A stretch of DNA of 41,513 nt from an uncultured Candidatus Saccharibacteria bacterium (GTDB lineage Bacteria; Patescibacteriota; Minisyncoccia; Phycocordibacterales; UBA5272), in contig CAYVUY010000003.1 of the NCBI GenBank assembly GCA_964455195.1, positions 1-41,513 on the forward strand. The letters are read 5' to 3'. Positions 9,431-32,493 of this stretch are shown piece after piece; positions within the stretch are counted from its first letter, which is position 1; every line of letters begins with the position of its first letter. The position numbers and the translations under genes are program-made. A model generated the notes under the pieces. It did not search any database and was not told the DNA's origin. It saw only the letters and a program-made list of their open reading frames with translations.

Positions 9431-10381
9431 TTAGACTCCACGAGCGCGGCCCTCTTTCAATTCTTCCAAGAATGAAGCGTATGCCATGCGTACTCCGTCA
9501 TGAAAGGATGTTTTGTGTTTCCATCCAAGAGAATGAAGTTTTTCGACATGAAGAAGCTTGCGCGGAGTTCCATCAGGTCTGGTCGTATCAAAAACGACAT
9601 CACCTTCATAGCCAACAACAGCTTGAATAGTCACGGCAAGTTCTTTGATGGTAATATCTTCGCCAGTGCCGATATTTACATGTCCTCGTTCGTTATATGT
9701 TTCCATTAAATGGACACATGCATCCGCCATATCATCAGAATAGAGAAATTCACGCATAGGAGATCCGGTTCCCCAGAGAATCACACTAGGGGATTTATTT
9801 ACTTTTGCTTCATGGAATTTACGAATCATTCCAGGAATCACATGTGAACTTTCACTATCGTAGTTGTCATTTGGACCATAGAGATTAGTAGGCATTACAG
9901 AAATGAAGTTATCACCATATTGATCACGATACGCTTCACATAGTTTTAGCCCAGCGATTTTTGCAATAGCATAGAATTCATTTGTAGGCTCAAGTGGGCT
10001 CGTTAGAAGAACATCTTCTGTCATTGGTTGAGGTGAATGTTTTGGATAAATACAAGATGACCCTAAGAAAAGAAGTTTCTTAACCTTATTTTCATGTGCA
10101 GCATGAATGATATTAGTTTCTATTACAAGGTTTTGATAAATGAATTCTGCAGGTTTCATTTTGTTTCCAACTATTCCGCCAACCTTAGCTGAAGCTAGGA
10201 ATACATACTCAGGTTTATACTTTGCAAAAAATGCATTAACATCAGCTTGATTTAATTGGTCTAGTTCTTTTCTTGATTTAGTAAGAATATTGGTATACCC
10301 TTTTGCTTTCAAGTTTCTTACCAGCGCACTACCCACAAGACCATTGTGACCAGCTACGTAGATAAGTGAATCTTTTTTCAT
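9431..10381 (-). CDS. fcl: GDP-L-fucose synthase (GDP-4-keto-6-deoxymannose 3,5-epimerase/4-reductase)
   Basis: [29 protein letters not shown] blocks typical of Fcl/WcaG. Lies 5 nt downstream of gmd. Confidence 0.9.
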
Positions 10382-10386
10382 ATGTG

Positions 10387-11463
10387 TTATACAACAACTA
10401 TATTAAAGTTACCATCGATAAGATGTTGCTCTCGTTTTGCTAATTGAATATCGTAAACCATCATTTCATCAAGTAGTTCTCTCGTTGAAATTTTGGGAGT
10501 CCATCCAAGAACTTTTCTTGCTTTCGAAGCATCTCCAAGGAGCGTTTCCACTTCTGCTGGTCGATAGTAGCGTTCATCAATACGCACTACAATTTTACCA
10601 GTAGCTTCATCGATACCGACTTCATTAAGTCCTTTACCTTGCCATTTTATTTTTGTGCCAACATGATCAAATGCCCATTCTACGAATTGACGAACACTAA
10701 ACTGTTCTCCAGTAGCCACTACATAATCATCAGGGGTATCTTGTTGTAACATAAGCCACATCGCTTCTACATAGTCTTTTGCATGACCCCAATCCCTTTT
10801 AGCATCCAAATTACCAAGATAAAGTGTATCTTCAAGTCCTAAACTAATTCGTGAGACAGCACGGGTAATTTTACGAGTAACGAATGTTTCTCCGCGTATT
10901 GGACTTTCATGGTTGAAGAGTATTCCATTACAGGTAAACATATCATAACTTTCACGATAGTTTTTTGTAATCCAAAATCCGAATACTTTCGCTACACCAT
11001 ATGGGCTGCGAGGGTAGAAAGGAGTTGTTTCTGTTTGCGGAGTTTCCATTACTTTACCGAACATCTCAGAAGAGGAAGCCTGATAGAAACGAGTTTTCTT
11101 TTCTAAACCACAGATACGAATTGCTTCTAGTATTCTTAGTACTCCTGTTGCATCGGTATCTGCTGTATATTCAGGAATTTCAAAAGACACCTTTACGTGC
11201 GACTGAGCGCCTAAGTTATAAAATTCATCTGGTTGAATTTTTTGTATGAGCTGTACAAGACTACCGGTATCTGTAAGATCACCGAAATGCATTTTAAATC
11301 GAGGGTTATGGTGTGGATCCTCATAAATCTCATCCACGCGAGCAGTATTAAAAAGAGATGTTCTACGTTTAATGCCGTGTACTTCGTAACCTTTGCTAAG
11401 TAGAAGTCTTGCCAAATAAGCACCATCTTGTCCTGTAATACCCGTAATAATAGCTTTTTTCAT
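10387..11463 (-). CDS. gmd: GDP-mannose 4,6-dehydratase
   Basis: [55 protein letters not shown]: canonical Gmd motifs. Confidence 0.95.
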
Positions 11464-11598
11464 GTACTTTTAATTTTAACACATAAGTTTATATTTGCGA
11501 TATTTTACTTTTTGTTTTTTTAGACGGGATTCTCGATGTGTTTTGTAGTAATTAATAAACAGTATTTTCTTATTGATAGTTTATTTATTTCCTGTATC

Positions 11599-12588
11599 AT
11601 GAGTATTTATATGACAACCAAGACTAAGACCAAGACTAAGAAAGTTACAAAAGTAGCCAAAAAAACTACAAGTAGCCAAAAAAGCGACATCAAGAGAAAA
11701 CCAAGACAAATTGTTCTTGTGACAGGGGGTGCAGGATTTATTGGTTCACACTTAGTAGAAGCACTTGTAAAAGATGGTGGTTATAAAGTCTACTCACTTG
11801 ATAACTATTTCACAGGATCAAAGGAAAATCACGTTAAAGGAGTTACATATATAAAAGGTCACACCAAAGATATTCATAAACTTGTAAAAGAGATTCCGCA
11901 TATTATTTTTCATCTCGGTGAGTATTCTCGTGTTGAAAAAAGTTTCGATGATATGGATATCGTGTGGGAGTACAACAAAGTAGGAACATTCGCAGTATTA
12001 CAGTTCTGCCGTACTTATAATGCGAAATTAGTCTATGCTGGATCTAGTACTAAGTTCGGAGACGGAGGAATCAGTCGTGATCAAAGTCCTTATGCGTGGA
12101 CCAAAGCAAGTAATACTGAGCTGGTACGTAACTATAGTCAGTGGTATGGCCTCAAGTATGCAATAACGTATTTTTATAATGTCTATGGCCCACGTGAAAT
12201 TACAAAAGGGGATTACGCTACAATTATAGGAATTTTCAAAGAAAATCACATCGAAGGAAAGCCGTTCAATGTAGTAAGTCCAGGAACACAGATTAGAAAC
12301 TTTACTCACGTGGAAGATATTATTCGTGGTCTTATTCTTGTTGGAGAGAAAGGTGAAGGAGATGACTATGGATTAGGACACGAAGAAGGATATAGTATTT
12401 TGGATTTAGCGAACATGTTCGGAGGAGAGATACACATGCTTCCAGAAAGAAGAGGTAATAGAATGAATACGCTTGTGGATGTAGTGCGTGCGCAGCGCGA
12501 GCTTAACTGGAAAGCAAAAATCAGTCTGAAAGATCACATTAAAGATTTTATTGCTAAAAATAAATCAAAAACTAAGTCGAAGAAGTAA
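11599..12588 (+). CDS. NAD-dependent sugar-nucleotide epimerase/dehydratase (extended SDR, UXS/RmlB-like) with Lys-rich termini
   Basis: VLVTGGAGFIGSHL Rossmann motif, SPYAWTK (YxxxK). Start uncertain (ATG 11599 or 11611; the track start 11536 is unlikely). N-terminal TKTKTKTKK and C-terminal KNKSKTKSKK tails. Confidence 0.85.
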   Translation: MSIYMTTKTKTKTKKVTKVAKKTTSSQKSDIKRKPRQIVLVTGGAGFIGSHLVEALVKDGGYKVYSLDNYFTGSKENHVKGVTYIKGHTKDIHKLVKEIPHIIFHLGEYSRVEKSFDDMDIVWEYNKVGTFAVLQFCRTYNAKLVYAGSSTKFGDGGISRDQSPYAWTKASNTELVRNYSQWYGLKYAITYFYNVYGPREITKGDYATIIGIFKENHIEGKPFNVVSPGTQIRNFTHVEDIIRGLILVGEKGEGDDYGLGHEEGYSILDLANMFGGEIHMLPERRGNRMNTLVDVVRAQRELNWKAKISLKDHIKDFIAKNKSKTKSKK

Positions 12589-13359
12589 TTAGCGACGAAT
12601 AAGTATTCGTACTAAGCGCATACATAAATATAGTACAAAGCTTAGGTGATAGAGAATGGCAAGTTTCTTTCCTTCAGTTATGAAAACTCGTATCGTGTGT
12701 AATTGTTCTTCCGCACTTCTTTTTCTAAAATTAAGACCGCTAACTTCATCATATCCGTCAGTGATAGTACTGTTGTGGTTATGATAGAACATTTTTTCAT
12801 GGAGACCAAGTTGGTAATAAAAAATCCACTCTTCTGCTTGTTTGATTTCCTTAGAAAAACGAATATTTTTAATTGTAGAAGTTTTTATTGTGTGTGTTAC
12901 ATCACCACGGCAACGTTTTAAAATGAGACAGTCTCTCGTGTATGAATACCAAGAGTTATTTTTGGGGAATTGGGTTACAAGAGTTCCGTCAGCATATGCA
13001 CGATTAGTAACTAGCCAATTAACATGAGGATGAGTGGAGAGTATCTTTGATAATGCTGTGAGAGCGTCTTTCGCTATGTAATCATCATCGTCCAAAAACA
13101 CGACCCAATCTGAATCATCAGATATCGAATCCAGTGCGAAATTACGAGTGTAATTAACGCCACGATTTTTATCATTATTAAAATATTTAATTCTCCTATC
13201 GGTTATAGAAGATGCAAAGTTAGTGTATGAAGCATCCTCCGGTGAGTCATTTACAATAATCATTTCCCAGTTGCTATATTCTTGCTGTAGCACTGAATCT
13301 ACAGCCCTCGTTAGTTTATCTACACGTTTATGTGTTGGGGTGATTATGCTGAATTTCAT
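12589..13359 (-). CDS. Glycosyltransferase family 2
   Basis: FSIITPTHKR...SVLQQEYSNWEMIIVNDSP...FLDDDDY: GT-A fold with a DxD motif. Confidence 0.85.
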   Translation of the reverse strand: MKFSIITPTHKRVDKLTRAVDSVLQQEYSNWEMIIVNDSPEDASYTNFASSITDRRIKYFNNDKNRGVNYTRNFALDSISDDSDWVVFLDDDDYIAKDALTALSKILSTHPHVNWLVTNRAYADGTLVTQFPKNNSWYSYTRDCLILKRCRGDVTHTIKTSTIKNIRFSKEIKQAEEWIFYYQLGLHEKMFYHNHNSTITDGYDEVSGLNFRKRSAEEQLHTIRVFITEGKKLAILYHLSFVLYLCMRLVRILIRR

Positions 13360-13452: not shown

Positions 13453-15009
13453 ATGAACATTCTGAATACCAAAGAAAGAGCATTTAAGAATATCTTTTAT
13501 AGTTTACTCTCTTTTGGATGGCCGATAATTATCGCCTTCATATTCACTCCTATCATTGTTAAAAGTTTTGGTATTAAGGAATACGGTATTTATATTTTTA
13601 TTAATACGTTAATTAGTTTAGCTGGGCTACTTGATTTAGGGGTTTCTACCGCAATTAGTAAATTCATTGCGGAGCGTAGGGGAAGTAATGATGTTAATGG
13701 ATTACGTGAATTATTTAAAACAGCCAATACGCTACTAATCGGTATAGGTGCTGTGGGTGCAGTTCTTATAGCTGGCTCTATCTTCTTAGGATTAGCTACT
13801 TTTCCAGGAGATGTAACTGGAGGTTATCAGGCATACATACCTTCATTTATATATGCAGGTATTTTATTTTTTATTAGTAGTATTAATTCAATACATGTGA
13901 TTATTCCAACAGCTTATCAACGTTTTGATATTGGAGCCAAGATTGGTATGGTGTTCATTACTCTACAACAGAGCCTTATATTACTTGTTGCAGTTTTGCA
14001 TGGTTCAATTAATGAATTATTTTTACTGCAAAGCATACTGATGTTTATTTTTTATTTTATATACAAGAAATACACAGCGACCATCATGGAGACTCATGAA
14101 CGTCCGTATTTAAATCTGTATGGATGGAATAAAAAAGAAGCTCTTGGTTGTTATAAATTCGGAATAGTACTTTTCCTTAACAACTTAGCGGGCGTATCAC
14201 TTACCTATCTTGATCGCATGATTATTCCGCTTTTCTTAGGTCCATCTAACCTGACCTACTATTCTCTTCCAGGAGGTATTACAAATAAAATTCCTAATTT
14301 ATCTACAACATTATCAAGCATTATTTTCCCAATGACCGCTCATTTCGAAGGAGGAGGGAATAGAGAGATGACTAAGAATCTATATATTCGTTCAATGCGT
14401 TTAATTACTATTATTTCTACCGCACTCACTATTACTTTCATTGCTTTTGCATATGAGATGCTTAAGTTTTGGATTAGTATCGATCTCGCAGAAAAGGCGA
14501 CAGGGGTATTAATTATACTTTCACTTACTAATCTTATACTCGCAGTAATGTACCCACTTAATACCTTCCTGCTTGGATTAGGGAAATTAAAAGCCCTTAG
14601 TATTACCTCTATCGTAACGGCCATTACTAATGGTGTGCTTCTTATAGTGTTACTTCCACATTTTGGAATCATAGGAGCTGCTTGGGCTTACTTGCTCGCA
14701 CTCATTCCATACTTCTACCTACTCTACATTACCGAGAAGTCATACCTAGAACTTACGTTCCGAGGAATGCATTATATAAAATTACTCTCACAGCTCCTTG
14801 TTACTGCGAGTGTTGTCTATTGTATAGATACGTTTATCTTGAAAGCATTCGTGACTAATTTCCCATTGGTATTAATAGCATCTGGAATCTCTTGTGTTTT
14901 ATTCATTGTCCTTCATTATACTTTCGGGTTCTTTGAAAAAGAAGACACAGACGACATCTATTCTTTTTTGAAAAATAACCTTCTTAAAAAGGTAGGAGTT
15001 ACTCTGTAG
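13453..15009 (+). CDS. wzx: Wzx-like oligosaccharide flippase (MOP/polysaccharide biosynthesis protein family)
   Basis: 518 aa, hydrophobic throughout (about 12-14 TM helices). N-terminal pattern typical of PST-family flippases. Located inside the glycan locus. Confidence 0.75.
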   Translation: MNILNTKERAFKNIFYSLLSFGWPIIIAFIFTPIIVKSFGIKEYGIYIFINTLISLAGLLDLGVSTAISKFIAERRGSNDVNGLRELFKTANTLLIGIGAVGAVLIAGSIFLGLATFPGDVTGGYQAYIPSFIYAGILFFISSINSIHVIIPTAYQRFDIGAKIGMVFITLQQSLILLVAVLHGSINELFLLQSILMFIFYFIYKKYTATIMETHERPYLNLYGWNKKEALGCYKFGIVLFLNNLAGVSLTYLDRMIIPLFLGPSNLTYYSLPGGITNKIPNLSTTLSSIIFPMTAHFEGGGNREMTKNLYIRSMRLITIISTALTITFIAFAYEMLKFWISIDLAEKATGVLIILSLTNLILAVMYPLNTFLLGLGKLKALSITSIVTAITNGVLLIVLLPHFGIIGAAWAYLLALIPYFYLLYITEKSYLELTFRGMHYIKLLSQLLVTASVVYCIDTFILKAFVTNFPLVLIASGISCVLFIVLHYTFGFFEKEDTDDIYSFLKNNLLKKVGVTL

Positions 15010-16993
15010 TCTTTTTAATAATCGAAGCTATTTTTTTCCCGGTCGAAACACTTGTTAATATTTTCCCACTTAAGACTGACCAGCATCCGAATCCGTGATC
15101 AATAAGATCAACCACACGAGAATCATCATGCTCTCTATTGGCTTGCACTGCTCGATGTACAATTCTAGATTCTACAATTACAGCTTCTTTTAATATTGGA
15201 AAATACTTCATACTTTCTCTTACTATAGCTTCTTGATTCGAAACGATTACTTTTCGTTTCTTAATAAGACCGTCAGCAGGAACATATCTATCAAGAATTG
15301 ATTCTGTAACATGATAAAGGGTGAATTCATGTTTATTTCCTGTTGGAATAAGTGTCGCGAATGGCCCATCAATGACAGTAATAGATACTGGATCGATAGG
15401 AAGTTTTATCACTAATACTTCTGTAAGATCAATACGAATAGGGGACTTTTCGAAAAGTGCGCTTGTGGTCGCAAGGTTGAGATTCGCATAGGTTGCATTA
15501 ATAACGAAATCAAATTTTTTCTCCACTTTCTTTTTATTTTTGATATAGAGTACAGATTTAGTATTGTCCTTGTTAAGAACAAGTTTCTGTACTGTAGCAT
15601 CACAAATAAGGGAGATACTTTTCTTCTTTGCAAGTCGTGCCTTCACTATCTTCTTTAGAGTTTCGTAGTGGTATCCAGGTTCATCTACTTGTATACAAAG
15701 TTCCATTTCACTCTTAGTAAGAAGGTGTGATGAAAGGCCTGATTTTGCATAACTGAGATTATGTTTTTCACAAAATGCCAAGAAGTCTTTAGCAGAAAAG
15801 TGTGACCCATGACGAGCTATTCCGTAGTATGTTGGGTATGAACGAATAATTGCTTTTTCATAAACACTTTCGAAGTCTTTTTTAGTGTTCTGAATTTCTA
15901 CAACAGTTTCACTACTTCTAGGGTAGTGATATCCAGCATGATGTCTAAAACAGTTTACATAAGCTCCTTCTTCCATGATGTCTTTATTTTTTTCAAAAAT
16001 AGTCACTTCACAGAATTCACTTAGTTCAGCTGCAGCGCTTGTACCGAAGACTCCACCACCGATAATTGCAACACGAGGTTTCTTATTTGTTTTTGGAATA
16101 GCTTGTTCTCCTATTTCCACCATCTTTCTACCTATTTCTCCTGTTGCTTTAGTATCCTTCTTAGTGGAAAGAGTAGAAATAAAATCTTTCAGCTCTGTAA
16201 GTATTAGATTTTCATCAGCTTTTACAGTGTGCACTTTTAGATTAGGTCCCTTTTTTACAGTGATGACATCCGTCATGTAATTAACCTCTACTGTTTCATT
16301 CTCATATTTAAAAGTAAGTGTTCTAGTTCTAACGTCTCCTACCCAACCTAAATCATAGTGTGCGTCACATAATTTCGCATATCGTACATGTGTGTGAGTG
16401 ATGCGGTCATGTTTTCTTCCTGATACAAGTGCTGCATCTTTATTAAAAATATAATGAACAATATCAAAAAGGTGCATCATCTCAAGTGAAGGCTCTCTTC
16501 CTTTGTCCGTAGAAAGTGGATTCGTGAATACACCGTGTATTTTTTTAGGGGAACCCTTTTTATCTAGGAGAATCTTTAATTTTTCAGTGACGTTGTTATA
16601 ACGGAAGATGTGTCCTACTGCAAGTGTACGTTTGTATTTCTTAGCTAATTTTTCTAATACAAGAGCATCTTTAGATTTTGTGGTTATTGGTTTTTCAACG
16701 AATACATTCGTATACGGTAAACATTTTTTAATAAGAGCAAAATGGGTTTCTGGTGGAGTTACTATATCTACAGCATCAACACTTTTCAAAAGAGCAGGGG
16801 TCAGAGTTCCGTAGGTGATAATTCCAAACTCTTTTTCTAGAGCTTTACCCTTTTTTTCATCCCGCACTACCGCACCCTTAAGTACAATAAGCTTCTTCTT
16901 TTCTAGTGTAAGAAGAACCTGTAAATGATTGCGTCCGAAATATCCTACTCCCACAAGAAGAACACTTGGTGGAGTAGATTTTTTAGGTGCCAT
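14999..16993 (-). CDS. Fusion protein: Gfo/Idh/MocA-type NAD(P) oxidoreductase (N-terminal) + FAD-dependent oxidoreductase, DAO-like (C-terminal)
   Basis: N-terminus VLLVGVGYFGRNH...VFVEKPIT (Gfo/Idh/MocA Rossmann). From about residue 305, RVAIIGGGVFGTSAAAEL...FEKN (FAD GxGxxG beta-alpha-beta). Single uninterrupted 664-aa ORF. Confidence 0.7.
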   Translation of the reverse strand: MAPKKSTPPSVLLVGVGYFGRNHLQVLLTLEKKKLIVLKGAVVRDEKKGKALEKEFGIITYGTLTPALLKSVDAVDIVTPPETHFALIKKCLPYTNVFVEKPITTKSKDALVLEKLAKKYKRTLAVGHIFRYNNVTEKLKILLDKKGSPKKIHGVFTNPLSTDKGREPSLEMMHLFDIVHYIFNKDAALVSGRKHDRITHTHVRYAKLCDAHYDLGWVGDVRTRTLTFKYENETVEVNYMTDVITVKKGPNLKVHTVKADENLILTELKDFISTLSTKKDTKATGEIGRKMVEIGEQAIPKTNKKPRVAIIGGGVFGTSAAAELSEFCEVTIFEKNKDIMEEGAYVNCFRHHAGYHYPRSSETVVEIQNTKKDFESVYEKAIIRSYPTYYGIARHGSHFSAKDFLAFCEKHNLSYAKSGLSSHLLTKSEMELCIQVDEPGYHYETLKKIVKARLAKKKSISLICDATVQKLVLNKDNTKSVLYIKNKKKVEKKFDFVINATYANLNLATTSALFEKSPIRIDLTEVLVIKLPIDPVSITVIDGPFATLIPTGNKHEFTLYHVTESILDRYVPADGLIKKRKVIVSNQEAIVRESMKYFPILKEAVIVESRIVHRAVQANREHDDSRVVDLIDHGFGCWSVLSGKILTSVSTGKKIASIIKKTTE

Positions 16994-17106: not shown

Positions 17107-17811
17107 TTACGTCTTGTTGACGTGCAACTTCCAGGCGATGAAGCTCATCCACGCAGAGTTGCTGCGGGAGTCACGATACATCGCGCCCTGGCTATCCACA
17201 CCACATGCAATGCGCTCAATGAGCTCATCGAGCGTGATGTATTCAGCGGAGTGGATTGGCTCCGTCGGATCAGCTTTTAATGCTTCAATCCTTCGCAGAT
17301 CAACTTCGATGAAGACCATATCGGCCCAGGTACCGCAGAAGCTTGGTGCTGGATTTTCCCACGGGTACTCAGGAGTTGAGACCTTGATTACCGTGGTTGC
17401 ACCAGCTTCTTCTTCCACCTCACGCGTACCAGCCATCTGCGGTGTTTCGAAGTTCAGGCTGTTAATCAGCTTGTCGCGAAATCCCATCGGCGTTGCACCG
17501 AATACCACCGGAGGATGATCATCCCCGGGACGGCGAGGGTCATCAGCGTGTGGCCGAGACTGACGGATGATGCCGACACGACAGTTTTTGTCTTGATCGT
17601 AACCATATACCACGCTTACCACATGTGGTGCTTCACGGTACATCGGGCGATCAAATATCGGTTTACCATCAGCCCCTATCACAACTACTTGACGCACTTC
17701 GCCGAATCGCGAAGATATATTCCACTCCCCGGTCATGGGGTGGCCGTTAATACTCAACGACCAGACTGGGAAATACCCAGGGAATTCTGCTACAGGTTTT
17801 GTGGCAGACAT
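17107..17811 (-). CDS. Nudix hydrolase (nucleoside-diphosphate-sugar/ADP-ribose pyrophosphatase-like), G+C-rich
   Basis: Nudix box fits Gx5Ex7REUxEExGU: ...ETPQMAGTREVEEEAGA. GGAGG (complement of 17819..17823) lies 7 nt before the ATG. 33/60 G+C counted at 17401-17460. Confidence 0.85.
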   Translation of the reverse strand: MSATKPVAEFPGYFPVWSLSINGHPMTGEWNISSRFGEVRQVVVIGADGKPIFDRPMYREAPHVVSVVYGYDQDKNCRVGIIRQSRPHADDPRRPGDDHPPVVFGATPMGFRDKLINSLNFETPQMAGTREVEEEAGATTVIKVSTPEYPWENPAPSFCGTWADMVFIEVDLRRIEALKADPTEPIHSAEYITLDELIERIACGVDSQGAMYRDSRSNSAWMSFIAWKLHVNKT

Positions 17812-18600: not shown

Positions 18601-18691
18601 ATAAAGTGTGAGTTTATGTAATAAACCTTTTATCCTTTAAGAATATCACACAATAGTAAAGCTTGTAGATTTGGTTTATACTTTTAGAATT

Positions 18692-24988: not shown

Positions 24989-25963
24989 ATGAAATTAGAA
25001 CTCACCATAATAATACCTTGCTATAATTGTGCAGACACCTTAGAGGAAGCTGTAGAATCTTGTTTTAAACAAAACCTAACTTCTTTTGAGGTGGTGTTAG
25101 TTGATGATGGCTCTTCTGATAGAACAAGAGAAGTAATGCATTCACTAGCTAAGAAACATTCTGAGGTGAAAGTATTTTTCCACGAGAAGAACCAAGGAGG
25201 AGGAGCAACTAGAAATACCGCAGTTAAACATGCAGAGGCAGACATTATTTTTTGTTTAGATAGTGACGATATTCTTCCAGATGGTTCACTATCTACAATG
25301 CTTTCTTTTATGAAAGAGAAGAATTGTGACGCAGTAGGAGTACATAAATCAATTAAATTTAGAGGAGCAAATAAGAATGATGTTATTCGAGTCGATACCT
25401 TTGGACATGTTGGAGAAAAAATTCCTTTCGAAGCCCTTCTTCAAAAAAATGGTGTCTTGTGTTCGCTCTATTCAACATTCATGCATACTAAGAAAGCATT
25501 TGAAATAGCAGGAGGGTATCCTGTAGAGCACGGCTTTGACACTCAAGGGTTTGCATGGAGATTTTTAACTTGTGGTTTAGATGCTTATACTTGTCCTGAA
25601 GCATCATATCTTCACCGTATAGAATATAAAGATTCTTATTATATACGGGAGGCAAATGCAGGGAAAATTAATTATAATTGGCAAGATTTGTTAAGCGAGT
25701 ACTTACCACTTTTTAATGAGGAAACAAGACAGTTCATTCTTACCTTTAACTGCACAGATGCTTCCCGTAATCTTTTTGAAGAATTTAAAGAAAGAAACTC
25801 TGTTTTTGTAGATAACTATAAAGAACTTATCGGCCTACATTTCAAAAGAGAAAAGAGGGTATTTCAAAATAGGAAATATATTAGTCGTTCAAGCTTTTTA
25901 GGTATTATAATGAGAATTAAGTATAAGTTAAAACGTTTATTCATACACAATGAAAACTCCTAG
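24989..25963 (+). CDS. Glycosyltransferase family 2
   Basis: LTIIIPCYNCADTLEEAVESC...VVLVDDGSSD...CLDSDD. Confidence 0.85.
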   Translation: MKLELTIIIPCYNCADTLEEAVESCFKQNLTSFEVVLVDDGSSDRTREVMHSLAKKHSEVKVFFHEKNQGGGATRNTAVKHAEADIIFCLDSDDILPDGSLSTMLSFMKEKNCDAVGVHKSIKFRGANKNDVIRVDTFGHVGEKIPFEALLQKNGVLCSLYSTFMHTKKAFEIAGGYPVEHGFDTQGFAWRFLTCGLDAYTCPEASYLHRIEYKDSYYIREANAGKINYNWQDLLSEYLPLFNEETRQFILTFNCTDASRNLFEEFKERNSVFVDNYKELIGLHFKREKRVFQNRKYISRSSFLGIIMRIKYKLKRLFIHNENS

Positions 25964-27278
25964 CGAAATATTCGTAAATCCTAAAAAACTTTCTTATACA
26001 GAAGAAACGTTGTTTTCGCTTATTAGGGCACTAGAAGAGGGAGGGTACGATATTGTATGTGCTGAGAGACTTACACTTAAGTTTAAAAATGGTTTTGTTA
26101 AAAAAGATATTTTTTTTGAAAACTTAAATCAAATTCTTCCAGAATCTGTACTTTCTGTACCTAAAGAACCAGAAGCTTTTATAAAAGAACGTTGGAATCC
26201 TTTGAATGGTTTATTTGTTGCTAAAAAATCATTACTTCATTCTTTGCACACAAAAGACTATGAAGATGTGGATGAATTATTACGATATTGTTTTAAACAC
26301 AATTACAAAATATTTATTCTTGGAGGTACTGAAGCAATAGAAACTATCACACCACATTTAGGTGTTCTACTTAGAAAATCAAACAACGTGGTTTCCAAAA
26401 TAAAACAAGTTTTAAAAGAAATAGTAGTAAGTAATTTTTATTTACGAAAAATATTTCTTCGAATTACTTATATTCTAGGTAACATAAGGTCTGTTTTTAA
26501 AAATAAAGAAAGAAGAAAGCGTTATTATGAAACAATAGAACAGAGTAAAATAAAAAAGGAATTAGTATTACATTTAAGTTACGGAGGGTTGGGGGATTGT
26601 CTTGTCTTTACCTCACTACCACGTCTTTTAAAAGAGCAATATGGTGTAGATTTTTATCTCGATGAGAAAACAAAAGATATTTTTCGTCAGCATGATATCT
26701 TTAAACTTTGTTTTGAAATGAATCCTTTTTTTAAAGGTTTTAAAACATCAGAAAATGTTTTTGAGTATGGACACTTCTCACAAGACATGTCGCTGCGTAC
26801 ATTTTTTACAGATAAGTACGGTGAAAATATTTGTGAACAAGTAGAGAGACAATTTAATGTAAAAGGTAATGGGGTGCCAGAATTATTTTATAAACCCAAA
26901 TTTTTATCTGAATACACTAATACTATCTTTGTAGACACTAACTGGTTTAGTGGAAAGAAATGGGGGCTCTATAATGATCAGTCTCTTTTAGAGAAAGAAA
27001 TTCAAAATTCAAAACTTGAAAATACAAATGCAAGAGTAGAGTTCTCTACTCCAACGAGACAAGATATTTTCACCTATATCGATAAGATTTTTTCGAGTTG
27101 GAAATTCATCAGCTTTTTTTCTGGTGGGAATGTACTTGCTGCCACATTAAAGAAAGAAAAGGTAACTATTATTTTGCCTGAAAATATTGAAGGTGGGTCA
27201 ATGTATTCTTTCCTTTTCCCTCGGTCGCACAATACATATATTCGAAATGGCTCATTAAAAGGATATGTGATACCATAG
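25950..27278 (+). CDS. Hypothetical protein; C-terminal half has a GT9 (heptosyltransferase)-like N-terminal motif
   Basis: 442-aa ORF. LHLSYGGLGDCLVFTSLPRLLKEQY at about residue 205 resembles the GT9 RxxxxGDxxxxxPxxxxLK motif. Extremely AT-rich (10/60 G+C counted at 26401-26460). Function uncertain. Confidence 0.45.
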   Translation: MKTPSEIFVNPKKLSYTEETLFSLIRALEEGGYDIVCAERLTLKFKNGFVKKDIFFENLNQILPESVLSVPKEPEAFIKERWNPLNGLFVAKKSLLHSLHTKDYEDVDELLRYCFKHNYKIFILGGTEAIETITPHLGVLLRKSNNVVSKIKQVLKEIVVSNFYLRKIFLRITYILGNIRSVFKNKERRKRYYETIEQSKIKKELVLHLSYGGLGDCLVFTSLPRLLKEQYGVDFYLDEKTKDIFRQHDIFKLCFEMNPFFKGFKTSENVFEYGHFSQDMSLRTFFTDKYGENICEQVERQFNVKGNGVPELFYKPKFLSEYTNTIFVDTNWFSGKKWGLYNDQSLLEKEIQNSKLENTNARVEFSTPTRQDIFTYIDKIFSSWKFISFFSGGNVLAATLKKEKVTIILPENIEGGSMYSFLFPRSHNTYIRNGSLKGYVIP

Positions 27279-27285: not shown

Positions 27286-27843
27286 ATGAAAAAACAACTG
27301 AAAAATACCGGTCTTGCGGTGCAGAAAATGTCTCAACCAAAACCTCCTAAAAATGATCCACCAGTATTTCAATACAAAGGTAAAATATATCCATCATATT
27401 TAAAGTATGGTGATGCATGTTCATACGCACTTCCTTTCGCGAAGAAATTCTGTAAAGGGAAAGGGTTAGACATTGGAGGTTATGCTGAATGGACATATCC
27501 AGGAGCTCGTGCGGTGAACATCACTAACGGTGAGGAGTACGATGCTTATAATCTTCCAGCTGGAAAGTATGATTATATTTTTAGTAGTCACACCTTGGAA
27601 CATTTACCTCTTTATGTAAAAGCGTTACAGTATTGGAAAGAACATTTAAAGAAAGGAGGAGTATTGTTTATGTACTTACCACACCCTGATATGGAATATT
27701 GGTTACCTCAGAATAATGCTAAGCATTACCATGCTTTTAACCCAGAGGAGTTGAAGAAAGTTCTAGTTGATATTGGATATAAAAATGTTTTAGTAAGTGA
27801 GAGAGACTTGTACTGGTCTTTTTCTGTAGTAGCTTTTAATTAA
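27286..27843 (+). CDS. Class I SAM-dependent methyltransferase (Methyltransf_11-like)
   Basis: KGLDIGG, YDYIFSSHTLEHL, LKKGGVLFMYLP. Confidence 0.7.
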   Translation: MKKQLKNTGLAVQKMSQPKPPKNDPPVFQYKGKIYPSYLKYGDACSYALPFAKKFCKGKGLDIGGYAEWTYPGARAVNITNGEEYDAYNLPAGKYDYIFSSHTLEHLPLYVKALQYWKEHLKKGGVLFMYLPHPDMEYWLPQNNAKHYHAFNPEELKKVLVDIGYKNVLVSERDLYWSFSVVAFN

Positions 27844-27904
27844 GCTGCTATTTAGACGGAGATACTTGTAGAAGTATTTTACGCACGTAATAAGACTAAC
27901 TTTT

Positions 27905-29683
27905 ATGGTAACCTTTTTAAAAAAATTTATTTGGTTTTTCAGACTCTGTGCACATCGTAAATGGAATCCACGACTTGTCGGTGCCTTTGTGTCTCTTAAG
28001 TTAAAGAAACTTTGTAAAGTAAAATTTAACGAAGTTGATACTTCCTCAGAATCCGTAGTAATAGATGTTGTAATCCCAACAGTATCTAAGGATTTAGCAC
28101 TTGTAGAAGAGGTAATAGAATCATTAAGAGAAAATCTTAAGCATACTATTTCTAAGTTTTACATTGTCACCCGCAAGACAGATGAAATGATTGCTTTTTG
28201 TGAAAAAAATAAATATGTTTTTGTTGATGAAGTTTCTGTACTTGGATATGGTAAAGATAAAGTACACTACACAGTACATGGAAAAGATAGAAGTGGGTGG
28301 ATATTCCAACAACTCTTAAAGCTCTCAGGGGACACGTTCGTAAAACAAAAAAAGTATTTTATTCTCGATTCGGATACTATTTTAATTAAGCCACATTCTT
28401 TTATTCGTGGTGGTAAAGACGTGTTCTTGCAAAGTGAAGAATGGAATCCACCGTATTTTAAATCATTCGAGAAGCTTTTTGGATACCCAACAAAAAACAC
28501 TCTTTCATATACAGCACATATGATGCTCTTCGACACAGATATGTTAAGAGAAATGAAGAAAGAAATTGAATCTAAGCATAAGAAATCATGGGATAAGGCA
28601 TACCTTGATCTTATTGATGAGAATGAGAATTCTTGCGCGTCAGATTATGATATGTACGCTAATTGGATGGAAGTTAATCATGGTGAAAAAGTAACATTTA
28701 CTCCGTTCTACAATACTGCCCTTCCTAGAAAGGAGCTCTTGCCGTTGTATGATATGATTAAAAAATATAATACAAAATATCAATCTATGTCTTTCCATCA
28801 CTACACCAACAAACCTATTACTACTAAATTAAAAGGAGGGTTAGGCAATCAAATGTTCCAGTATGTTATGGGACTTACATTTGCAACTAGAGATAATCGA
28901 GAACTTAAGTTAGATGTTACTGCGTATATGGATAATGGTTCTCCAGCCAGAGATACTCCACGTAAGTATAGACTTCATGCTTTTAATTTATCTGGCACGC
29001 TCGCTACGACAGAAGAAGCTATGAAGGCACGTAATCCATACGGAATCCTATCCAAAGGTATAAGGTTCATTAGTCAGAGAATTTTGAAGCGTTTCTATAC
29101 AGATTATGATGCTGACTTTTTGAAAAAAGAACATGACTACATAGAAGGATATTTCCAGTCAGAGAAAAACTTTATTTCAATAAAAGATAAAGTGTTTAAA
29201 GAATTTACATTGAAGAAAGAATTCGAATCTCCTGTTTATATAGAAGAGAAAGCAAAAATTGATAAAGAGAAAAGTGTTTCAGTTCACATCAGACGAGGGG
29301 ATTATGTAAGTGATCAAAAAACTAATCAAGTCCATGGAGTATGCAACAAAGACTATTACGATAAGGGAATAGCATATATAAAAACTAAAATTGATTCACC
29401 AATTTTCTATTTCTTTTCTGATGATATTGAATGGGTAAAGAATGAATTCGGTAATGACCCAAACTACAGATATGTTTCTAATCCTAAGCTAGAAGACTAT
29501 GAAGAATTGATGCTTATGACAGCGTGCGCGAATAACCTCATAGCTAACTCGTCATTCTCGTGGTGGGGAGCATGGCTAAACAGAAATCCTAATAAGCTAG
29601 TTGTAGCCCCTAATAGATGGGTAAATATAAAACCAAACCCTCAGCCGAATATTATTCCAGAAGGCTGGACAATACTAGACTAA
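27905..29683 (+). CDS. Two-domain glycosyltransferase: N-terminal GT-A-like domain + C-terminal GT11 alpha-1,2-fucosyltransferase
   Basis: C-terminal half: GGLGNQMFQY, HIRRGDY, FFSDDIEWVK, NSSFSWWGAWL (GT11/FutC motifs). N-terminal half: VIDVVIPTVSKD...GWIFQQLLKL...FILDSDT (DxD-like). Confidence 0.8.
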   Translation: MVTFLKKFIWFFRLCAHRKWNPRLVGAFVSLKLKKLCKVKFNEVDTSSESVVIDVVIPTVSKDLALVEEVIESLRENLKHTISKFYIVTRKTDEMIAFCEKNKYVFVDEVSVLGYGKDKVHYTVHGKDRSGWIFQQLLKLSGDTFVKQKKYFILDSDTILIKPHSFIRGGKDVFLQSEEWNPPYFKSFEKLFGYPTKNTLSYTAHMMLFDTDMLREMKKEIESKHKKSWDKAYLDLIDENENSCASDYDMYANWMEVNHGEKVTFTPFYNTALPRKELLPLYDMIKKYNTKYQSMSFHHYTNKPITTKLKGGLGNQMFQYVMGLTFATRDNRELKLDVTAYMDNGSPARDTPRKYRLHAFNLSGTLATTEEAMKARNPYGILSKGIRFISQRILKRFYTDYDADFLKKEHDYIEGYFQSEKNFISIKDKVFKEFTLKKEFESPVYIEEKAKIDKEKSVSVHIRRGDYVSDQKTNQVHGVCNKDYYDKGIAYIKTKIDSPIFYFFSDDIEWVKNEFGNDPNYRYVSNPKLEDYEELMLMTACANNLIANSSFSWWGAWLNRNPNKLVVAPNRWVNIKPNPQPNIIPEGWTILD

Positions 29684-29706
29684 ATTCACTCAGTCAAGGG
29701 TGTATA

Positions 29707-29744
29707 CCATGAAAAAACCACACTCTAGTGTGGTTTTTTCATGG
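29707..29744. terminator. Bidirectional intrinsic terminator
   Basis: 17-bp inverted repeat CCATGAAAAAACCACAC / GTGTGGTTTTTTCATGG. The track start codon 29741 lies inside this hairpin. Confidence 0.7.
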
Positions 29745-29782
29745 TATACTTTTTTGCAATACTCATTATTAAAATAAACTGT

Positions 29783-32125
29783 ATGCAAAAAAATCTTAAA
29801 ACAATTGTGCTTGTTTCTTTATCACTTATTCCGTTTCTCGCATGGCTTGTGTCTGACGGGCGATTCCTTGATCTTAATATCGACTTTGGAAACTCGGGAC
29901 TTTTCTTCCCGTTTATTTCAGGGAAAAACTTCGGCTTCAGAGTGTTGGTTGAAATTGCTTTCGTAGCATGGGCATTTCTTGCGATACGTTTTCCAGAATA
30001 CCGTCCGAGAATGTCTAAGTTGCTTCTTGCGTACAGTATTTTCATTGGAGTGCTTTTCGTGGCAGACCTCTTCGGTGTTGATCCAGAAAGAAGTTTCCTT
30101 TCTAACTATGAACGTATGGAAGGATTCGTTACACACTTACACCTATACCTTTACTTCATTATGTTTACCTCAGTGGTACGCACAGCGGTAGAGTGGGATA
30201 GAATGCTTAAGATTTTTTTGTCGTCAAACGCAGTTGTACTTCTATGGGGATACTTTCAACTTCTCGGTAGTCCATCGTTCATCGTGGCTAAGATAGCTCC
30301 TCCTCTTGCTAAAGCGTTTAGTGGTAAGTTCCCAATTCACATGTCAGGGGACCGACTAGATAGTACTATTGGTAACTCAGCATATTTCGCTATTTATACA
30401 GCGCTCTTTGCATTCATTGCAGCAATTCTTTATCTTCGTGAGCAGAAGAAGAGTTGGAGAAAGGTCTACGTGGCAATGGTTGTTCTAAACCTCATAGCGC
30501 TTTTCTACACAGGTACTCGTGGAACACAATTAGGTCTTGGGCTTGGATTACTTGTTGCAGTATGTGCATTCGTATTTTCATATGCAAAACATAAGAAAAT
30601 AGTAACACTCATCTCGGTGCTTCCAGTCTTGGGTATTGTGTCAGCATTGTTTGATAAAAATCTCCTCAACTTCCTTTATCAAGGTGCAACGCTTTACGTC
30701 ATTATCGTAGCCGCATGTGCTGTTTATGTGGCTCGTGCTGATCATGATAAAGAAAAGAAGATTGCTGCTAATATTCTTGTGTTTATCGCAGCATGTGCAC
30801 TTATCTTTACTCTTGCTAAGGGTTCAGATTTCGTGAAGAATAGTCCATCACTTTCTCGTCTTGCTAACATATCAGTGACAGATGGAACCACACTTTCTCG
30901 TTTCACCATTTGGAAAATGAGTTATGAAGGATGGAAGGAAAGACCATTACTTGGTTACGGACAAGATAACTTCGGTTATATCTTCGCTCGTCATTTCGAC
31001 CCTGCAATGTATGGACAGGAACCATGGTTCGATCGTTCTCACAACGTGTTCTTCGACTGGTTAGTTGCAGGTGGAATATTAGGACTACTCTCGTATCTAT
31101 CACTCTTTGCTATTGCATTGTACTTATTACTTAAAGTAAAAGGAGATTTATCACCAAAAGAAAAGGTGTTACTACTTGGAGCTTTGGTAACATACTTTAT
31201 ACACAATACGCTAGTGTTCGATAACTTAACCAGTTATATTCTCTTCTTCATGCTACTCGCATTCATTTCTATGCGTACTGAAGGACATCTTCATAAACCA
31301 GTACATAAGAATATGTCTGAATACCAAGCTGTACTTGAACCTGTGGCAGTTGTGCTAACACTTATTGTATTTTGGTTCGCTGTTTATAAGCCGTACGTAG
31401 CTAATACGCTTCTTATTAAAGCAATTGATACCGCACGTCTCGCGCAAGGTCCACAAGGAAATAGAAGTATTGAGGAAGTAATCAATATTCAAATTGATTC
31501 ATTTAAACAAGCTCTTGCAATGGATAGTTTCGGATCACAAGAAGTTCGTGAACAAATGGTAAGTTACGCTGCTCGTCTTGCTGGGTATAACGCTTCACTT
31601 CCTCCAGTGCAGAAATTCTTAGGAGAAACTGACAAAGTTATCGCGGGTCTTTCTGATAAGGACAAGAGTGATGTTCGCCAACTCTCTATCTACGGAGCAT
31701 ACTTTAATGCAAAGCAAGACTTCACAAATGCTGAAGCATTCTTAAGTAAGGCTCACGAGCTTAGTCCTAACAAGCAACTTATTGCTTTTGATTTGATTAG
31801 TACCTATATAGGGGAGAAGAAGTATGCAGATATGTATACAGTTGCACTACAGACATACAATGCTAGACCACAAGTAGCAGCAGCTGCAACCATTCTTGCG
31901 GCGGCATCAGTATACGCTGGTAAGGAAGCAGAAACTGTTAAAATATTTACCGATAACAATCAGAAGTTCCCACTATCGATTGAAGTTATTAATGCTTACA
32001 TTAATCTCGGTAATTATCAGCGTGCTATCGATCTTCTTAATCAATACAAAGCACAGAACCCAGGTGACGCAACACAGGTTGATGCATTTATTAAACAAAT
32101 TATCGATAGGGCAAATAAAAAATAA
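29783..32125 (+). CDS. O-antigen ligase/polymerase-like (Wzy_C family) polytopic membrane protein with a C-terminal TPR-like domain
   Basis: Many TM helices. YTGTRGTQLGLGLGLL is like the Wzy_C loop. The C-terminal ~270 aa are helical-repeat/TPR-like. Start re-assigned to ATG 29783 (MQKNLKT...), which lies 7 nt after TAAAAT. Confidence 0.75.
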   Translation: MQKNLKTIVLVSLSLIPFLAWLVSDGRFLDLNIDFGNSGLFFPFISGKNFGFRVLVEIAFVAWAFLAIRFPEYRPRMSKLLLAYSIFIGVLFVADLFGVDPERSFLSNYERMEGFVTHLHLYLYFIMFTSVVRTAVEWDRMLKIFLSSNAVVLLWGYFQLLGSPSFIVAKIAPPLAKAFSGKFPIHMSGDRLDSTIGNSAYFAIYTALFAFIAAILYLREQKKSWRKVYVAMVVLNLIALFYTGTRGTQLGLGLGLLVAVCAFVFSYAKHKKIVTLISVLPVLGIVSALFDKNLLNFLYQGATLYVIIVAACAVYVARADHDKEKKIAANILVFIAACALIFTLAKGSDFVKNSPSLSRLANISVTDGTTLSRFTIWKMSYEGWKERPLLGYGQDNFGYIFARHFDPAMYGQEPWFDRSHNVFFDWLVAGGILGLLSYLSLFAIALYLLLKVKGDLSPKEKVLLLGALVTYFIHNTLVFDNLTSYILFFMLLAFISMRTEGHLHKPVHKNMSEYQAVLEPVAVVLTLIVFWFAVYKPYVANTLLIKAIDTARLAQGPQGNRSIEEVINIQIDSFKQALAMDSFGSQEVREQMVSYAARLAGYNASLPPVQKFLGETDKVIAGLSDKDKSDVRQLSIYGAYFNAKQDFTNAEAFLSKAHELSPNKQLIAFDLISTYIGEKKYADMYTVALQTYNARPQVAAAATILAAASVYAGKEAETVKIFTDNNQKFPLSIEVINAYINLGNYQRAIDLLNQYKAQNPGDATQVDAFIKQIIDRANKK

Positions 32126-32142
32126 TGTAAATTAAAACTTAT

Positions 32143-32493
32143 ATGAGTAGAACCAAAGATGAATTCGATGTTTTTTATGAAACAAGACCATGGGGAGCAT
32201 TCCACGAGTACCGCTCAGGAGTGAAAATGCTTATTGTTAATGCTAATGAAGCTTTCAGTCTTCAATATCATAATCACCGCGCAGAATTCTGGGAAGTGTT
32301 AGAGGGTAACCCTATTATTACTGTTGGAGACAAAGAAATACCTGCTAAACCAGGAGATAGATTCTTAATTCCAGTTAAAACAATTCATAGAATAAATGGT
32401 GGTCCAACAGGGACTAAGGTATTCGAATTAGCAACTGGTCACTTCGATGAAGATGATATTGTGAGAATCGAAGATAAATACGGACGAAATTAG
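32143..32493 (+). CDS. Stand-alone cupin, type II phosphomannose isomerase-like (ManC C-terminal domain homolog)
   Basis: RPWGAF...SLQYHNHRAEFWEVLEG...PGDRFLIPVKTIHRI matches the PMI type II cupin pattern. Confidence 0.75.
   Translation: MSRTKDEFDVFYETRPWGAFHEYRSGVKMLIVNANEAFSLQYHNHRAEFWEVLEGNPIITVGDKEIPAKPGDRFLIPVKTIHRINGGPTGTKVFELATGHFDEDDIVRIEDKYGRN

Follow-up and report, generated by a model that had tools for sequence, protein, structure and literature searches.

A candidate hypervariable surface-glycan island anchored by a TPR-bearing Wzy_C protein in the Paceibacterota

The general O-glycosylation loci of Bacteroidota combine conserved end genes with a variable interior and direct the synthesis of species-specific, fucose-containing and partly O-methylated glycans. 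The general O-glycosylation cluster of Tannerella forsythia spans 27 kb and contains a Wzx flippase, nucleotide-sugar genes, five glycosyltransferases (GTs) and three methyltransferases (PMC6120980); the priming transferase lies outside such clusters, as does the oligosaccharyltransferase in the case of Tannerella. Here we analysed a locus of similar size (23 kb, positions 9431-32493) in a 41,513-nt stretch of DNA from an uncultured, ultra-small patescibacterium of wastewater (contig CAYVUY010000003.1, hereafter the window), which shares the Wzx flippase and the nucleotide-sugar, glycosyltransferase and methyltransferase genes, the absence of a priming transferase and, in its sister locus L041, an asnB-like gene, and whose gene content predicts a glycan of the same kind. 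In contrast to the Bacteroidota loci, a tetratricopeptide repeat (TPR) protein of the WaaL/PglL superfamily is encoded inside the locus and forms its conserved anchor, an outer membrane is lacking, GT114 enzymes, a GFO/IDH/MocA-DAO fusion and two Gmd enzymes are present, and no acceptor motif is known. The combination had not been matched to a described pathway; its architecture does correspond to a described kind, that of the Bacteroidota general O-glycosylation loci and of S-layer glycan loci, and what stands is that no characterised cluster matches it gene for gene (no search against E. coli O-antigen or colanic-acid clusters was made). We consider it somewhat better than an even bet that the locus is a hypervariable surface-glycan island of the Paceibacterota, working as an O-antigen or general O-glycosylation locus without lipopolysaccharide (LPS) and ending in the en bloc transfer of the glycan by a ligase.

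The second point of comparison is provided by the Wzy_C enzymes PglL, TfpO and PglS, which move preassembled glycans whole to Ser, Thr or Tyr residues of pilins, S-layer and other surface proteins (PMC3643930). The relaxed glycan specificity of PglL-type enzymes fits a conserved transferase with variable glycans, as is found here, and Gram-positive S-layer glycans include methyl-capped 6-deoxyhexose chains, which resemble the glycan predicted from this locus. WsaB and WsfB are the S-layer O-oligosaccharyltransferases of Geobacillus and Paenibacillus (see also PMC2943079). The Geobacillus pathway, in contrast to the present one with its Wzx flippase, exports by an ABC transporter. A further difference from PglL and the S-layer enzymes is that neither the PglL_A motif nor an adjacent pilin or S-layer gene was recognised here. 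To the best of our knowledge, none of PglL, TfpO, PglS, WsaB and WsfB carries a TPR domain.

Pfam and NCBIfam scans of every open reading frame (ORF) of at least 90 aa in the window gave 19 of the 21 genes between 9431 and 32493 a glycan-related family assignment, and a twentieth, an orphan of 442 aa, is linked to glycan synthesis by gene fusion in relatives. The ORF map reproduces the coordinates of the initial annotation, and its view of a single 23-kb glycan locus holds. Its calls of two gmd genes and fcl, an epimerase-like enzyme, a nucleotidyltransferase, a cupin, a fused oxidoreductase, two GT2 proteins, five methyltransferases including two FkbM proteins, a GT11 fusion, a Wzx flippase and a Wzy_C/TPR protein were all recovered as family matches, with the scores given below. 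The same ORFs contain, as had been noted, no priming phosphoglycosyltransferase (Bac_transf or Glycos_transf_4), no Wzz or other chain-length regulator, no ABC transporter and no DegT-type aminotransferase; no Wzy besides the Wzy_C-TPR protein and no pilin family match were detected in the window, and LPS or core genes are missing both from the window and from all related flanks that were annotated. Read depth is even at 3-5 over the whole stretch in two wastewater metagenome runs, including a gene with outlying GC content; an assembly artefact is ruled out. Promoter and terminator scans did not exceed the expectation from shuffled DNA (57 sigma-70 promoters versus 68.6 expected, 11 terminators versus 11.3 expected, with a strong hairpin after a Nudix-like gene as the exception) and were therefore not used for operon definition.

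The Wzy_C-TPR protein (29741..32125, plus strand) matches Wzy_C with 70.7 bits (cut-off 31.7), carries C-terminal TPR units (TPR_19) and is polytopic, with at least 12 hydrophobic segments and a large external loop. It belongs to a large family of Patescibacteria with a typical length of about 740 residues. At E<=1e-10, 1693 relatives were retrieved from the database; of the 120 listed, nearly all measure 720-800 aa, and their source names read O-antigen ligase family protein, from Paceibacterota, Parcubacteria or Nomurabacteria. When the profile was run against 1.84 billion cluster representatives, 3505 matched at E<=1e-30. Mean column identity over 52 aligned family members is 52%, with many invariant polar residues, and R260, R387 and H434 are invariant in the 52 homologues. 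An exact look-up of the protein sequence led to no recorded contig. A single-sequence phmmer search against the PDB found no match, whereas the family profile reaches WaaL from Cupriavidus metallidurans (7tpg) at E 5e-8 and aligns these three residues with the functional Arg/Arg/His of WaaL, in the motifs TRG, R-x-x-I-W (RLKIW) and AHN. The corresponding residues of the E. coli enzyme, R215, R288 and H338, are functional and are conserved in PglL (PMC3643930). With WaaL the protein thus shares the Wzy_C domain, a polytopic fold, the large external loop and the aligned Arg/Arg/His, and its donor would likewise be expected to be a Wzx-flipped polyprenyl-diphosphate-linked oligosaccharide. It differs in about 380 extra residues, which include additional helices and the C-terminal TPR superhelix, in that lipid A-core would not be anticipated as an acceptor in this phylum, and in that only a family profile detects the sequence similarity.

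In the AlphaFold2 model (mean predicted local distance difference test score, pLDDT, of 86), the TPR region winds into a superhelix about 230 residues long, for which Foldseek searches brought up the TPR domains of PEX5, OGT and SPY as similar folds. WaaL 7tpg is the only membrane protein among the top 50 Foldseek matches of the model, the remainder being dominated by TPR proteins. The four helices that follow the catalytic loop, together with short loops rich in Lys and Arg, suggest an extracellular TPR domain that shares its side of the membrane with the active site. With no PglL_A match, the protein does not seem to fall in the PglL family as this motif defines it, and the locus cannot be a classical WaaL system, given that lipid A-core or LPS genes are found neither in the window nor in related flanks. 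No description of the ligase family or of the island was found in the literature on O-antigen ligases, glycosyltransferases or fucose in Patescibacteria and the Candidate Phyla Radiation (CPR). The ligase architecture is undescribed, and an island anchored in this way across the phylum is new, while the logic of the pathway is familiar: the locus is built from known enzyme families and its mechanism is not new in kind. One irregular gene call was noticed in a close relative, L037/L038 (120-2498, 78% identity): all 794 residues are aligned by tblastn, yet the orthologue is called as 592 aa after a separate ORF of 142 aa. Possible reasons are a frameshift, pseudogenisation or faulty assembly.

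A comparison across related genomes, as the initial annotation had suggested, revealed a conserved gene with conserved flanks beside a variable upstream cassette. The genes tsaD and rlmH follow the Wzy_C-TPR gene in the window and in L001, L034, L036, L037 and L040, and a gene for a trypsin-like protease is present there in the window and in the last three of these. In eight other GTDB species representatives (L005, L008, L011, L013, L019, L022, L025 and L026), murB comes directly after the Wzy_C-TPR gene. The murB gene of the window (2208-3212) lies 26.5 kb upstream of it, across the glycan island, which points either to a rearrangement of the region or to an island located between genes that were neighbours ancestrally. 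The glycan cassette is always located upstream of the Wzy_C-TPR gene and its content is different in every genome: GT9, FkbM and methyltransferases in L034; GT25, a carbamoyltransferase, GT-D and Nudix in L036; GT-D, GT25 and epimerases in L040; and gmd-fcl directly abutting the Wzy_C-TPR gene in L008, L022 and L033. A census of the 139 ORFs in the 10 kb upstream of this gene in 16 species comprised class-I methyltransferase families (19 ORFs), GT4 (18), Wzx-type flippases (10), short-chain dehydrogenase/reductase (SDR) enzymes (10), FkbM (7) and GT2 (6), with Wzx kept in 10 of the 16 cassettes. The wealth of methyltransferases suggests that heavy methylation is a trait of the lineage and not of this genome alone.

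The nearest relatives, L039 and L041, both come from one other metagenome and carry Wzy_C-TPR proteins with 75% identity. They share with the window the order fcl, gmd, SDR, GT2a, Wzx, GFO_DAO, GT114, FkbM and two methyltransferase genes, and likewise the order GT11, Wzy_C-TPR gene and cupin. Identities to L041 are mosaic (43-88%, with insertions and deletions), ranging from 88% for the SDR to 53-57% for gmd and fcl, and L041 has a single GT114-FkbM module, a fused gene for GT2b and its partner, and an added asparagine synthetase-like gene. SDR, GT2a, Wzx and GFO_DAO recur as a block in L041 and L042. The picture is one of three layers: the transferase and its flanks are conserved, the core of SDR, GT2a, Wzx and GFO_DAO is semi-conserved, and the periphery is exchanged rapidly. 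By analogy, this pattern resembles O-antigen, capsule and Bacteroidota general O-glycosylation loci, and the locus described here would be one allele of a hypervariable glycan island that, to judge from these sequences, sits at a conserved ligase gene throughout the Paceibacterota.

We propose that Gmd and Fcl would make GDP-L-fucose in the cytoplasm, while the SDR and the nucleotidyltransferase would supply one or more UDP-sugars. The soluble glycosyltransferases (two GT2, two GT114, the GT2b partner and DUF6492-GT11) would then build an oligosaccharide on a polyprenyl-phosphate carrier, which would be primed by an enzyme encoded elsewhere in the genome, probably by analogy with wecA in E. 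coli. By hydrophobic-segment counts, the glycosyltransferases and methyltransferases are without transmembrane segments, except for a single C-terminal helix in GT2a, whereas Wzx and the ligase-type protein are polytopic; assembly is thus likely to take place in the cytoplasm, and the carrier would have to be moved across the membrane. Five S-adenosylmethionine (SAM)-dependent methyltransferases, two of them FkbM proteins each paired with a GT114, would O-methylate the sugars, and the GnnA-like/FAD fusion would make or resolve a keto-sugar. Wzx would flip the finished unit, and the Wzy_C-TPR protein, the only extracytoplasmic catalyst in the locus, would transfer it whole to an extracytoplasmic acceptor via a WaaL-type Arg-Arg-His site, the TPR domain, predicted to be external, holding the acceptor. 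A surface protein (S-layer, pilin or another secreted protein) is the most likely acceptor, with peptidoglycan or a wall polymer as the alternative; either is preferred over a lipid, and these bacteria are not known to carry LPS. A lipid carrier, flipping and Wzy_C transfer had been put forward before, and this remains the best reading, strengthened by the Arg-Arg-His residues and by synteny, the carrier itself being presumed.

Several observations weigh against this proposal. Neither the window, nor the patescibacterial flanks that were annotated, nor the 25 most frequent families in the census include a priming transferase, so that a lipid-linked start is assumed. The locus comprises five or more transcription units on both strands, and its genes may serve different products. 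The external placement of the TPR domain derives from helix counting and the positive-inside rule, and the Foldseek E-value for WaaL is weak (0.016) and serves only as support. At E<=0.01 there is no match to PF15864, the PglL_A motif by which proteobacterial protein O-oligosaccharyltransferases are marked, the Wzy_C-TPR gene has no recognisable pilin or S-layer gene as its neighbour, and Pfam Wzy_C (PF04932) also covers Wzy polymerases, of which the window has no separate copy. The Nudix-like and nucleotidyltransferase genes, moreover, are insertions relative to L041 and look like recent additions.

The best surviving alternative, though an unlikely one, follows from the breadth of PF04932. 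The Wzy_C-TPR protein could be a Wzy-type polymerase, in which case a repeat-unit polysaccharide (a capsule or secondary wall polymer) would be polymerised outside the membrane, and an enzyme of LCP type or another kind, with its gene outside the locus, would attach it to peptidoglycan. Wzx is present without any other Wzy candidate in the locus, the neighbour murB in the eight genomes mentioned above is a peptidoglycan gene, and a GFO_DAO-bearing polysaccharide locus of a Stellaceae genome (L044) has a Wzy_C protein together with Wzz. Polymerases, however, are normally the most variable and repeat-unit-specific genes of such loci, whereas the Wzy_C-TPR protein is the conserved anchor (52%) while the set of glycosyltransferases changes completely; no Wzz or other chain-length regulator was found in the window or the patescibacterial flanks, and the Arg-Arg-His pattern aligns with the ligase WaaL. 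A ligase or O-oligosaccharyltransferase of relaxed specificity is therefore favoured over a repeat-unit polymerase, because the enzyme is conserved while the glycans vary, because ligase-type residues are kept, and because a protein-interaction domain is carried.

Somewhat less probable again is a mosaic, in which the core (SDR, GT2a, Wzx, GFO_DAO and the Wzy_C-TPR gene) makes a simple, conserved glycan and the fucose, GT114 and methyltransferase genes decorate something else, for instance a glycolipid or secreted compound. The number of transcription units, the uneven identities to L041, the two inserted genes, the recurrence of the SDR-GT2a-Wzx-GFO_DAO block in L041 and L042 and of the GFO_DAO-Wzx pair in L043 are all compatible with such a division. 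On the other hand, one flippase and one ligase-type enzyme are available for all cytoplasmic glycosyltransferases, the genes from 18671 to 32493 are tightly packed, with gaps of at most 132 nt or overlaps, and end in the Wzy_C-TPR and cupin genes, and the position of gmd and fcl next to the Wzy_C-TPR gene in L008, L022 and L033 ties fucose to the ligase pathway. The least probable alternative is a lipid acceptor, with the glycan being added to a lipoglycan or glycolipid anchor in the cytoplasmic membrane in the way that WaaL glycosylates lipid A-core, for although WaaL, the closest solved relative, transfers to a glycolipid and PglL_A is absent, the window holds no lipid A or core biosynthesis genes, Patescibacteria are monoderm-like and not known to carry LPS, and a TPR domain of about 230 residues is typical of protein-recognising glycosyltransferases, with OGT and SPY among the fold matches.

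On the reading of a surface-glycan island with en bloc transfer, the only 6-deoxyhexose with direct support is L-fucose, which would be supplied as GDP-L-fucose through gmd and fcl. The product of fcl (9431..10381, minus strand), a GDP-L-fucose synthase by its Epimerase match of 216 bits and its NF047922 match of 496.7 bits, falls marginally below the equivalog cut-off of 500 bits; orthologues with 58-62% identity lie beside gmd and directly upstream of the Wzy_C-TPR gene in L008, L022 and L033. The adjacent gmd1 (10387..11463, minus strand) encodes a GDP-mannose 4,6-dehydratase of the E. coli type (TIGR01472, 588 bits, cut-off 415; nearest PDB entries 7kf3 and 1db3 at 520-528 bits), and gmd2 (23958..24986, plus strand) one of the Aquifex type (TIGR01472, 428.7 bits; nearest PDB entry 2z1m, 388 bits). 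The two are 51% identical and belong to distinct lineages, and gmd2 has no counterpart at the same position in L041. A glycan of fucose/rhamnose type had been anticipated, of which the fucose part is upheld by gmd and fcl; the rhamnose part is not, as neither rml genes nor Rmd were found in the window, and D-rhamnose formed by a bifunctional Gmd is only conceivable.

The extended SDR (11536..12588, plus strand; Epimerase 141 bits) has UDP-Glc 4-epimerase 4zrm (115 bits) and UXS1 2b69 (93 bits) as its nearest PDB entries, and falls in the UDP-hexose 4-epimerase/UDP-glucuronate decarboxylase class, within which UXS and 4-epimerase are not separated. It is the most conserved gene product of the locus core (84-88% identity to L041, 70% to L042) and bears an unusual N-terminal tail rich in Lys and Thr that is included in the conservation with L041. 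The sugar-1-phosphate nucleotidyltransferase (17920..18600, minus strand; NTP_transferase 109 bits) scores best with the archaeal GlmU N-domain (Arch_glmU, 184 bits) and AglF UDP-Glc pyrophosphorylase (148 bits) models of NCBIfam, both below their cut-offs, and scores lower, with 83 bits, against the mannose-1-phosphate guanylyltransferase model. Its gene is absent from the corresponding position of L041, and neither a phosphomannomutase nor a UDP-glucose dehydrogenase was recognised in the window. A stand-alone cupin of the phosphomannose isomerase type (32143..32493, plus strand; MannoseP_isomer 63.6 bits) closes the locus; it is 92-93% identical at the same position in L037 and L039, and a cupin gene occurs near GFO_DAO in L042 as well.

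The Nudix hydrolase of the initial annotation (17107..17811, minus strand) is a weak call, with a match exactly at the Pfam cut-off (NUDIX, 21.1 bits) and a partial Nudix box (E-x7-REVEEEAG), and is accordingly referred to as Nudix-like here. Its gene stands out from the locus, which has about 36% GC, by a GC content of 52.8% (0.528 versus about 0.36 in its neighbours) and a third-codon-position GC (GC3) of 54.5%, is followed by its own terminator hairpin with a 13-bp stem at 17060-17089, and is missing from the sister locus L041, and it was probably acquired recently by insertion or horizontal transfer. A chimeric assembly as its source was ruled out by the even depth in the two runs, and searches for its origin gave no matches in plasmids (tblastn), PHROGs or the PDB (single-sequence phmmer).

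The conserved GT2 of the locus core, GT2a (12589..13359, minus strand; Glycos_transf_2 85 bits), has PglI/WcaA-like NCBIfam matches below their cut-offs. Its orthologues (48-62% identity in L034, L036, L040, L041 and L042) adjoin the Wzy_C-TPR gene or Wzx. The second GT2, GT2b (24989..25963, plus strand; Glycos_transf_2 122 bits), was considered as a GtrB/DPM1-like polyprenyl-phosphate priming transferase, and this was rejected because C-terminal transmembrane helices are lacking. The reading frame of GT2b overlaps the gene of the 442-aa orphan (25950..27278, plus strand), which has no Pfam or NCBIfam match and only 15 homologues among 5.8 billion proteins. This protein had been labelled GT9-like, a designation that we withdraw, since no BLASTP similarity to the GT9 of L034 was found and PF01075 is present in none of the 15 homologues. 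In three homologues, and likewise in a 588-aa ORF of L041, its C-terminal ~300 residues occur as part of a fusion with a GT2. This is a Rosetta-stone link to the upstream GT2b, of which the orphan is most sensibly regarded as a second domain or an accessory protein.

Directly upstream of the Wzy_C-TPR gene, 27905..29683 (plus strand) encodes a fusion of DUF6492 (49 bits) with a GT11 domain of the alpha-1,2-fucosyltransferase family (Glyco_transf_11 106.2 bits, cut-off 23.9, covering profile positions 124-278 of 298). GT11 is located directly upstream of the Wzy_C-TPR gene in the closest relative L039 as well (63-69% identity), and related genes occur in L042 (50%) and L019 (43%).

Two further glycosyltransferases had been described as exostosin-like; they do form a paralogous pair, and the family is corrected here to CAZy GT114, as their sequences indicate. 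This family was founded by A075L of chlorovirus PBCV-1, a beta-xylosyltransferase that adds xylose to O-4 of L-fucose with Asp73 as catalytic base and Arg158 and Arg208 as phosphate-binding residues (PMC11571054). The GT114 of module 1 (18671..19633, plus strand) matches A075L structures 8avq, 8asa and 8q8i over the GT-B core at E 1.1e-19, and that of module 2 (20651..21547, plus strand) at E 1.5e-13, the latter also matching RXYLT1_C (27.2 bits), likewise a xylosyltransferase domain. Asp73, Arg158, Arg208 and Asn202-Gly203 of A075L align with conserved residues in the module 2 enzyme (motif pairs HSD/NSD, EER/KER and HRLWE/IRTWE, with GNG conserved), and the motifs HNGD, KER, CRTWE and GNA were recognised by inspection in the module 1 enzyme. 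As the nearest characterised relatives, A075L and RXYLT1, depend on UDP-xylose, a pentose may be present in the glycan.

In both modules the GT114 gene is followed by a gene for an FkbM methyltransferase (19766..20644, plus strand, TIGR01444 108 bits, in module 1; 21540..22406, plus strand, in module 2). With paralogue identities of 38% (GT114) and 42% (FkbM), module 2 looks like an old tandem duplicate of module 1, whose orthologues in L041 are 70% (GT114) and 82% (FkbM) identical, and each pair may be read as a unit of sugar addition followed by methylation. The capsid N-glycan machinery of PBCV-1 thus resembles the present locus in a GT114 with the same catalytic Asp/Arg, a GDP-fucose pathway with viral Gmd and Fcl-type enzymes, methyltransferases and a fucose-centred, O-methylated glycan (PMC11571054, PMC9614988). 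It differs in that the viral glycan is built in the cytoplasm on capsid Asn without lipid carrier, flippase or ligase, and in that GT114 is duplicated here, each copy paired with FkbM.

Besides the two FkbM proteins, the five SAM methyltransferases comprise three class-I enzymes, all on the plus strand: a Methyltransf_23 protein (22430..23239; 43% identity to its L041 orthologue), a Methyltransf_24/O-methyltransferase (23246..23950; 63%) and a second Methyltransf_23 protein (27286..27843; Pfam 42 bits). Several dedicated O-methyltransferases, which act position by position on fucose or rhamnose, are also known from mycobacterial phenolic glycolipids and glycopeptidolipids, where tailoring yields di- and tri-O-methyl 6-deoxyhexoses (PMC3594219). 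In contrast to the present locus, the mycobacterial acceptor is a polyketide or lipopeptide lipid, Wzx and Wzy_C are missing, and the glycosyltransferases are unrelated. Taken from its genes, the predicted glycan would contain L-fucose, two GT2-derived and two GT114-derived sugars, the latter perhaps xylose. Fucose would be used by GT11 and possibly as acceptor sites of GT114, O-methyl groups could be present at as many as five kinds of position, and the GFO-DAO fusion might contribute a sugar that is epimerised or derived from a keto intermediate.

The Wzx-type flippase of the MOP superfamily (13453..15009, plus strand; Polysacc_synt_3 45.9 bits, Polysacc_synt 41.8 bits, MatE) has about 12 or more hydrophobic segments and is 68% identical to its orthologue in L041 and 43% to those in L042 and L021. 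Convergent with it lies a gene for a fusion of a GFO/IDH/MocA protein, similar to sugar 3-dehydrogenases, with a DAO-family FAD oxidase (14999..16993, minus strand; Pfam), an arrangement that is also observed in L041 and in the gammaproteobacterial polysaccharide locus L043, which in addition holds a WecA-type (Glycos_transf_4) transferase. The same two-domain architecture of about 665 aa was found in 206 homologues, one of which (P0194) is additionally fused to a GT4, and the fusion also occurs in the Stellaceae locus L044, so that it appears, from this distribution, to be a mobile module that crosses phylum boundaries. In the AlphaFold2 model (pLDDT 93.6), the N-terminal domain superposes on the UDP-GlcNAc 3-dehydrogenase GnnA (7bvj) with a TM-score of 0.86 and a root-mean-square deviation of 2.1, with other sugar C-3 oxidoreductases matching as well, and the C-terminal domain on glycine oxidase (4ysh) with a TM-score of 0.75. 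The most economical guess from the model is that the fusion makes or resolves a keto-sugar. The idea that its FAD domain is a 2-hydroxyglutarate oxidase recycling a WbpB-like cofactor was set aside as speculation, since the nearest fold is glycine oxidase and no sequence-level assignment was obtained. Like the orphan GT2 partner and the bacterial GT114-FkbM modules, the GFO-DAO fusion is conserved but uncharacterised.

CPR bacteria make up a large share of bacterial diversity, live attached to other microbes and have almost never been cultured, and next to nothing has been established about the chemistry of their surfaces; work on the pili of Saccharibacteria published in 2024 terms their glycosylation processes "unexplored" (PMC11623550). 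The Wzy_C-TPR protein offers a conserved, easily recognised marker that flags the glycan island in any metagenome-assembled genome, and the gene content of the island predicts the type of glycan, here fucose with GT114-added sugars and up to five kinds of methylation. We speculate, tentatively and with more doubt than confidence, that the Paceibacterota (perhaps the Patescibacteria) possess a phylum-specific general glycosylation system in which a conserved ligase of the WaaL/PglL fold with an external, acceptor-binding TPR domain, encoded at a fixed chromosomal site, installs strain-specific, heavily O-methylated glycans from the adjacent hypervariable cassette on surface proteins or the wall. 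These would form the main variable surface antigen of the episymbionts and govern host recognition and the evasion of phages and predators, and the cassettes would exchange GT114, Gmd/Fcl and methyltransferase genes with the gene pool of giant-virus capsid glycans. Questions that arise are whether the glycan sits on the S-layer, pili or wall, and how cassette diversity relates to host range or phage pressure, and a ligase with relaxed specificity could also be of interest to glyco-engineers.

Upstream of fcl, the locus is bordered (6403-9430) by a TrwB/HerA-like ATPase (phrog_5156, 212 bits) that overlaps the start of a gene for a secreted Lamin-tail (LTD)/PKD protein (8105-9430) by 17 nt. The latter has linkers rich in Ser, Thr and Pro and may, speculatively, be a candidate glycan acceptor; an ORF of L004 (6360-7409) with 26% identity to it over 368 aa lies directly after the Wzy_C-TPR gene of that locus. 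At a distance of 3 kb upstream of the locus, 5105-6346 encodes a DUF4015 protein (277 bits), a putative TIM barrel resembling glycoside hydrolases, which has a signal anchor at its N-terminus.

Three ORFs of 252, 133 and 210 aa at 316-1472 and 36563-37195 have 47-50% GC compared with 35-39% for the genome, and showed no Pfam or PHROG match. The high-GC stretches at 1-1500, 17.0-17.9 kb and 36.5-37.2 kb were also considered as RNA genes, given that tRNA-Ile genes are often part of rRNA operons, which was rejected as Rfam found no rRNA or other RNA in them. Just downstream of the core genes, 37594-41513 holds the remnant of a prophage or integrative element. Encoded in it are the small subunit of a terminase (phrog_4102, 82 bits), an endolysin-like protein with PG_binding and a large serine integrase (phrog_95), whose gene overlaps at its 3' end with a partial tRNA gene on the minus strand at the window edge (41448-41513). 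Between the small-terminase-like and the endolysin-like genes of this remnant, a full-length LOOT RNA (Rfam RF03000) was identified at 38013-38136 on the plus strand, with 95.6 bits against a gathering threshold of 46.4.

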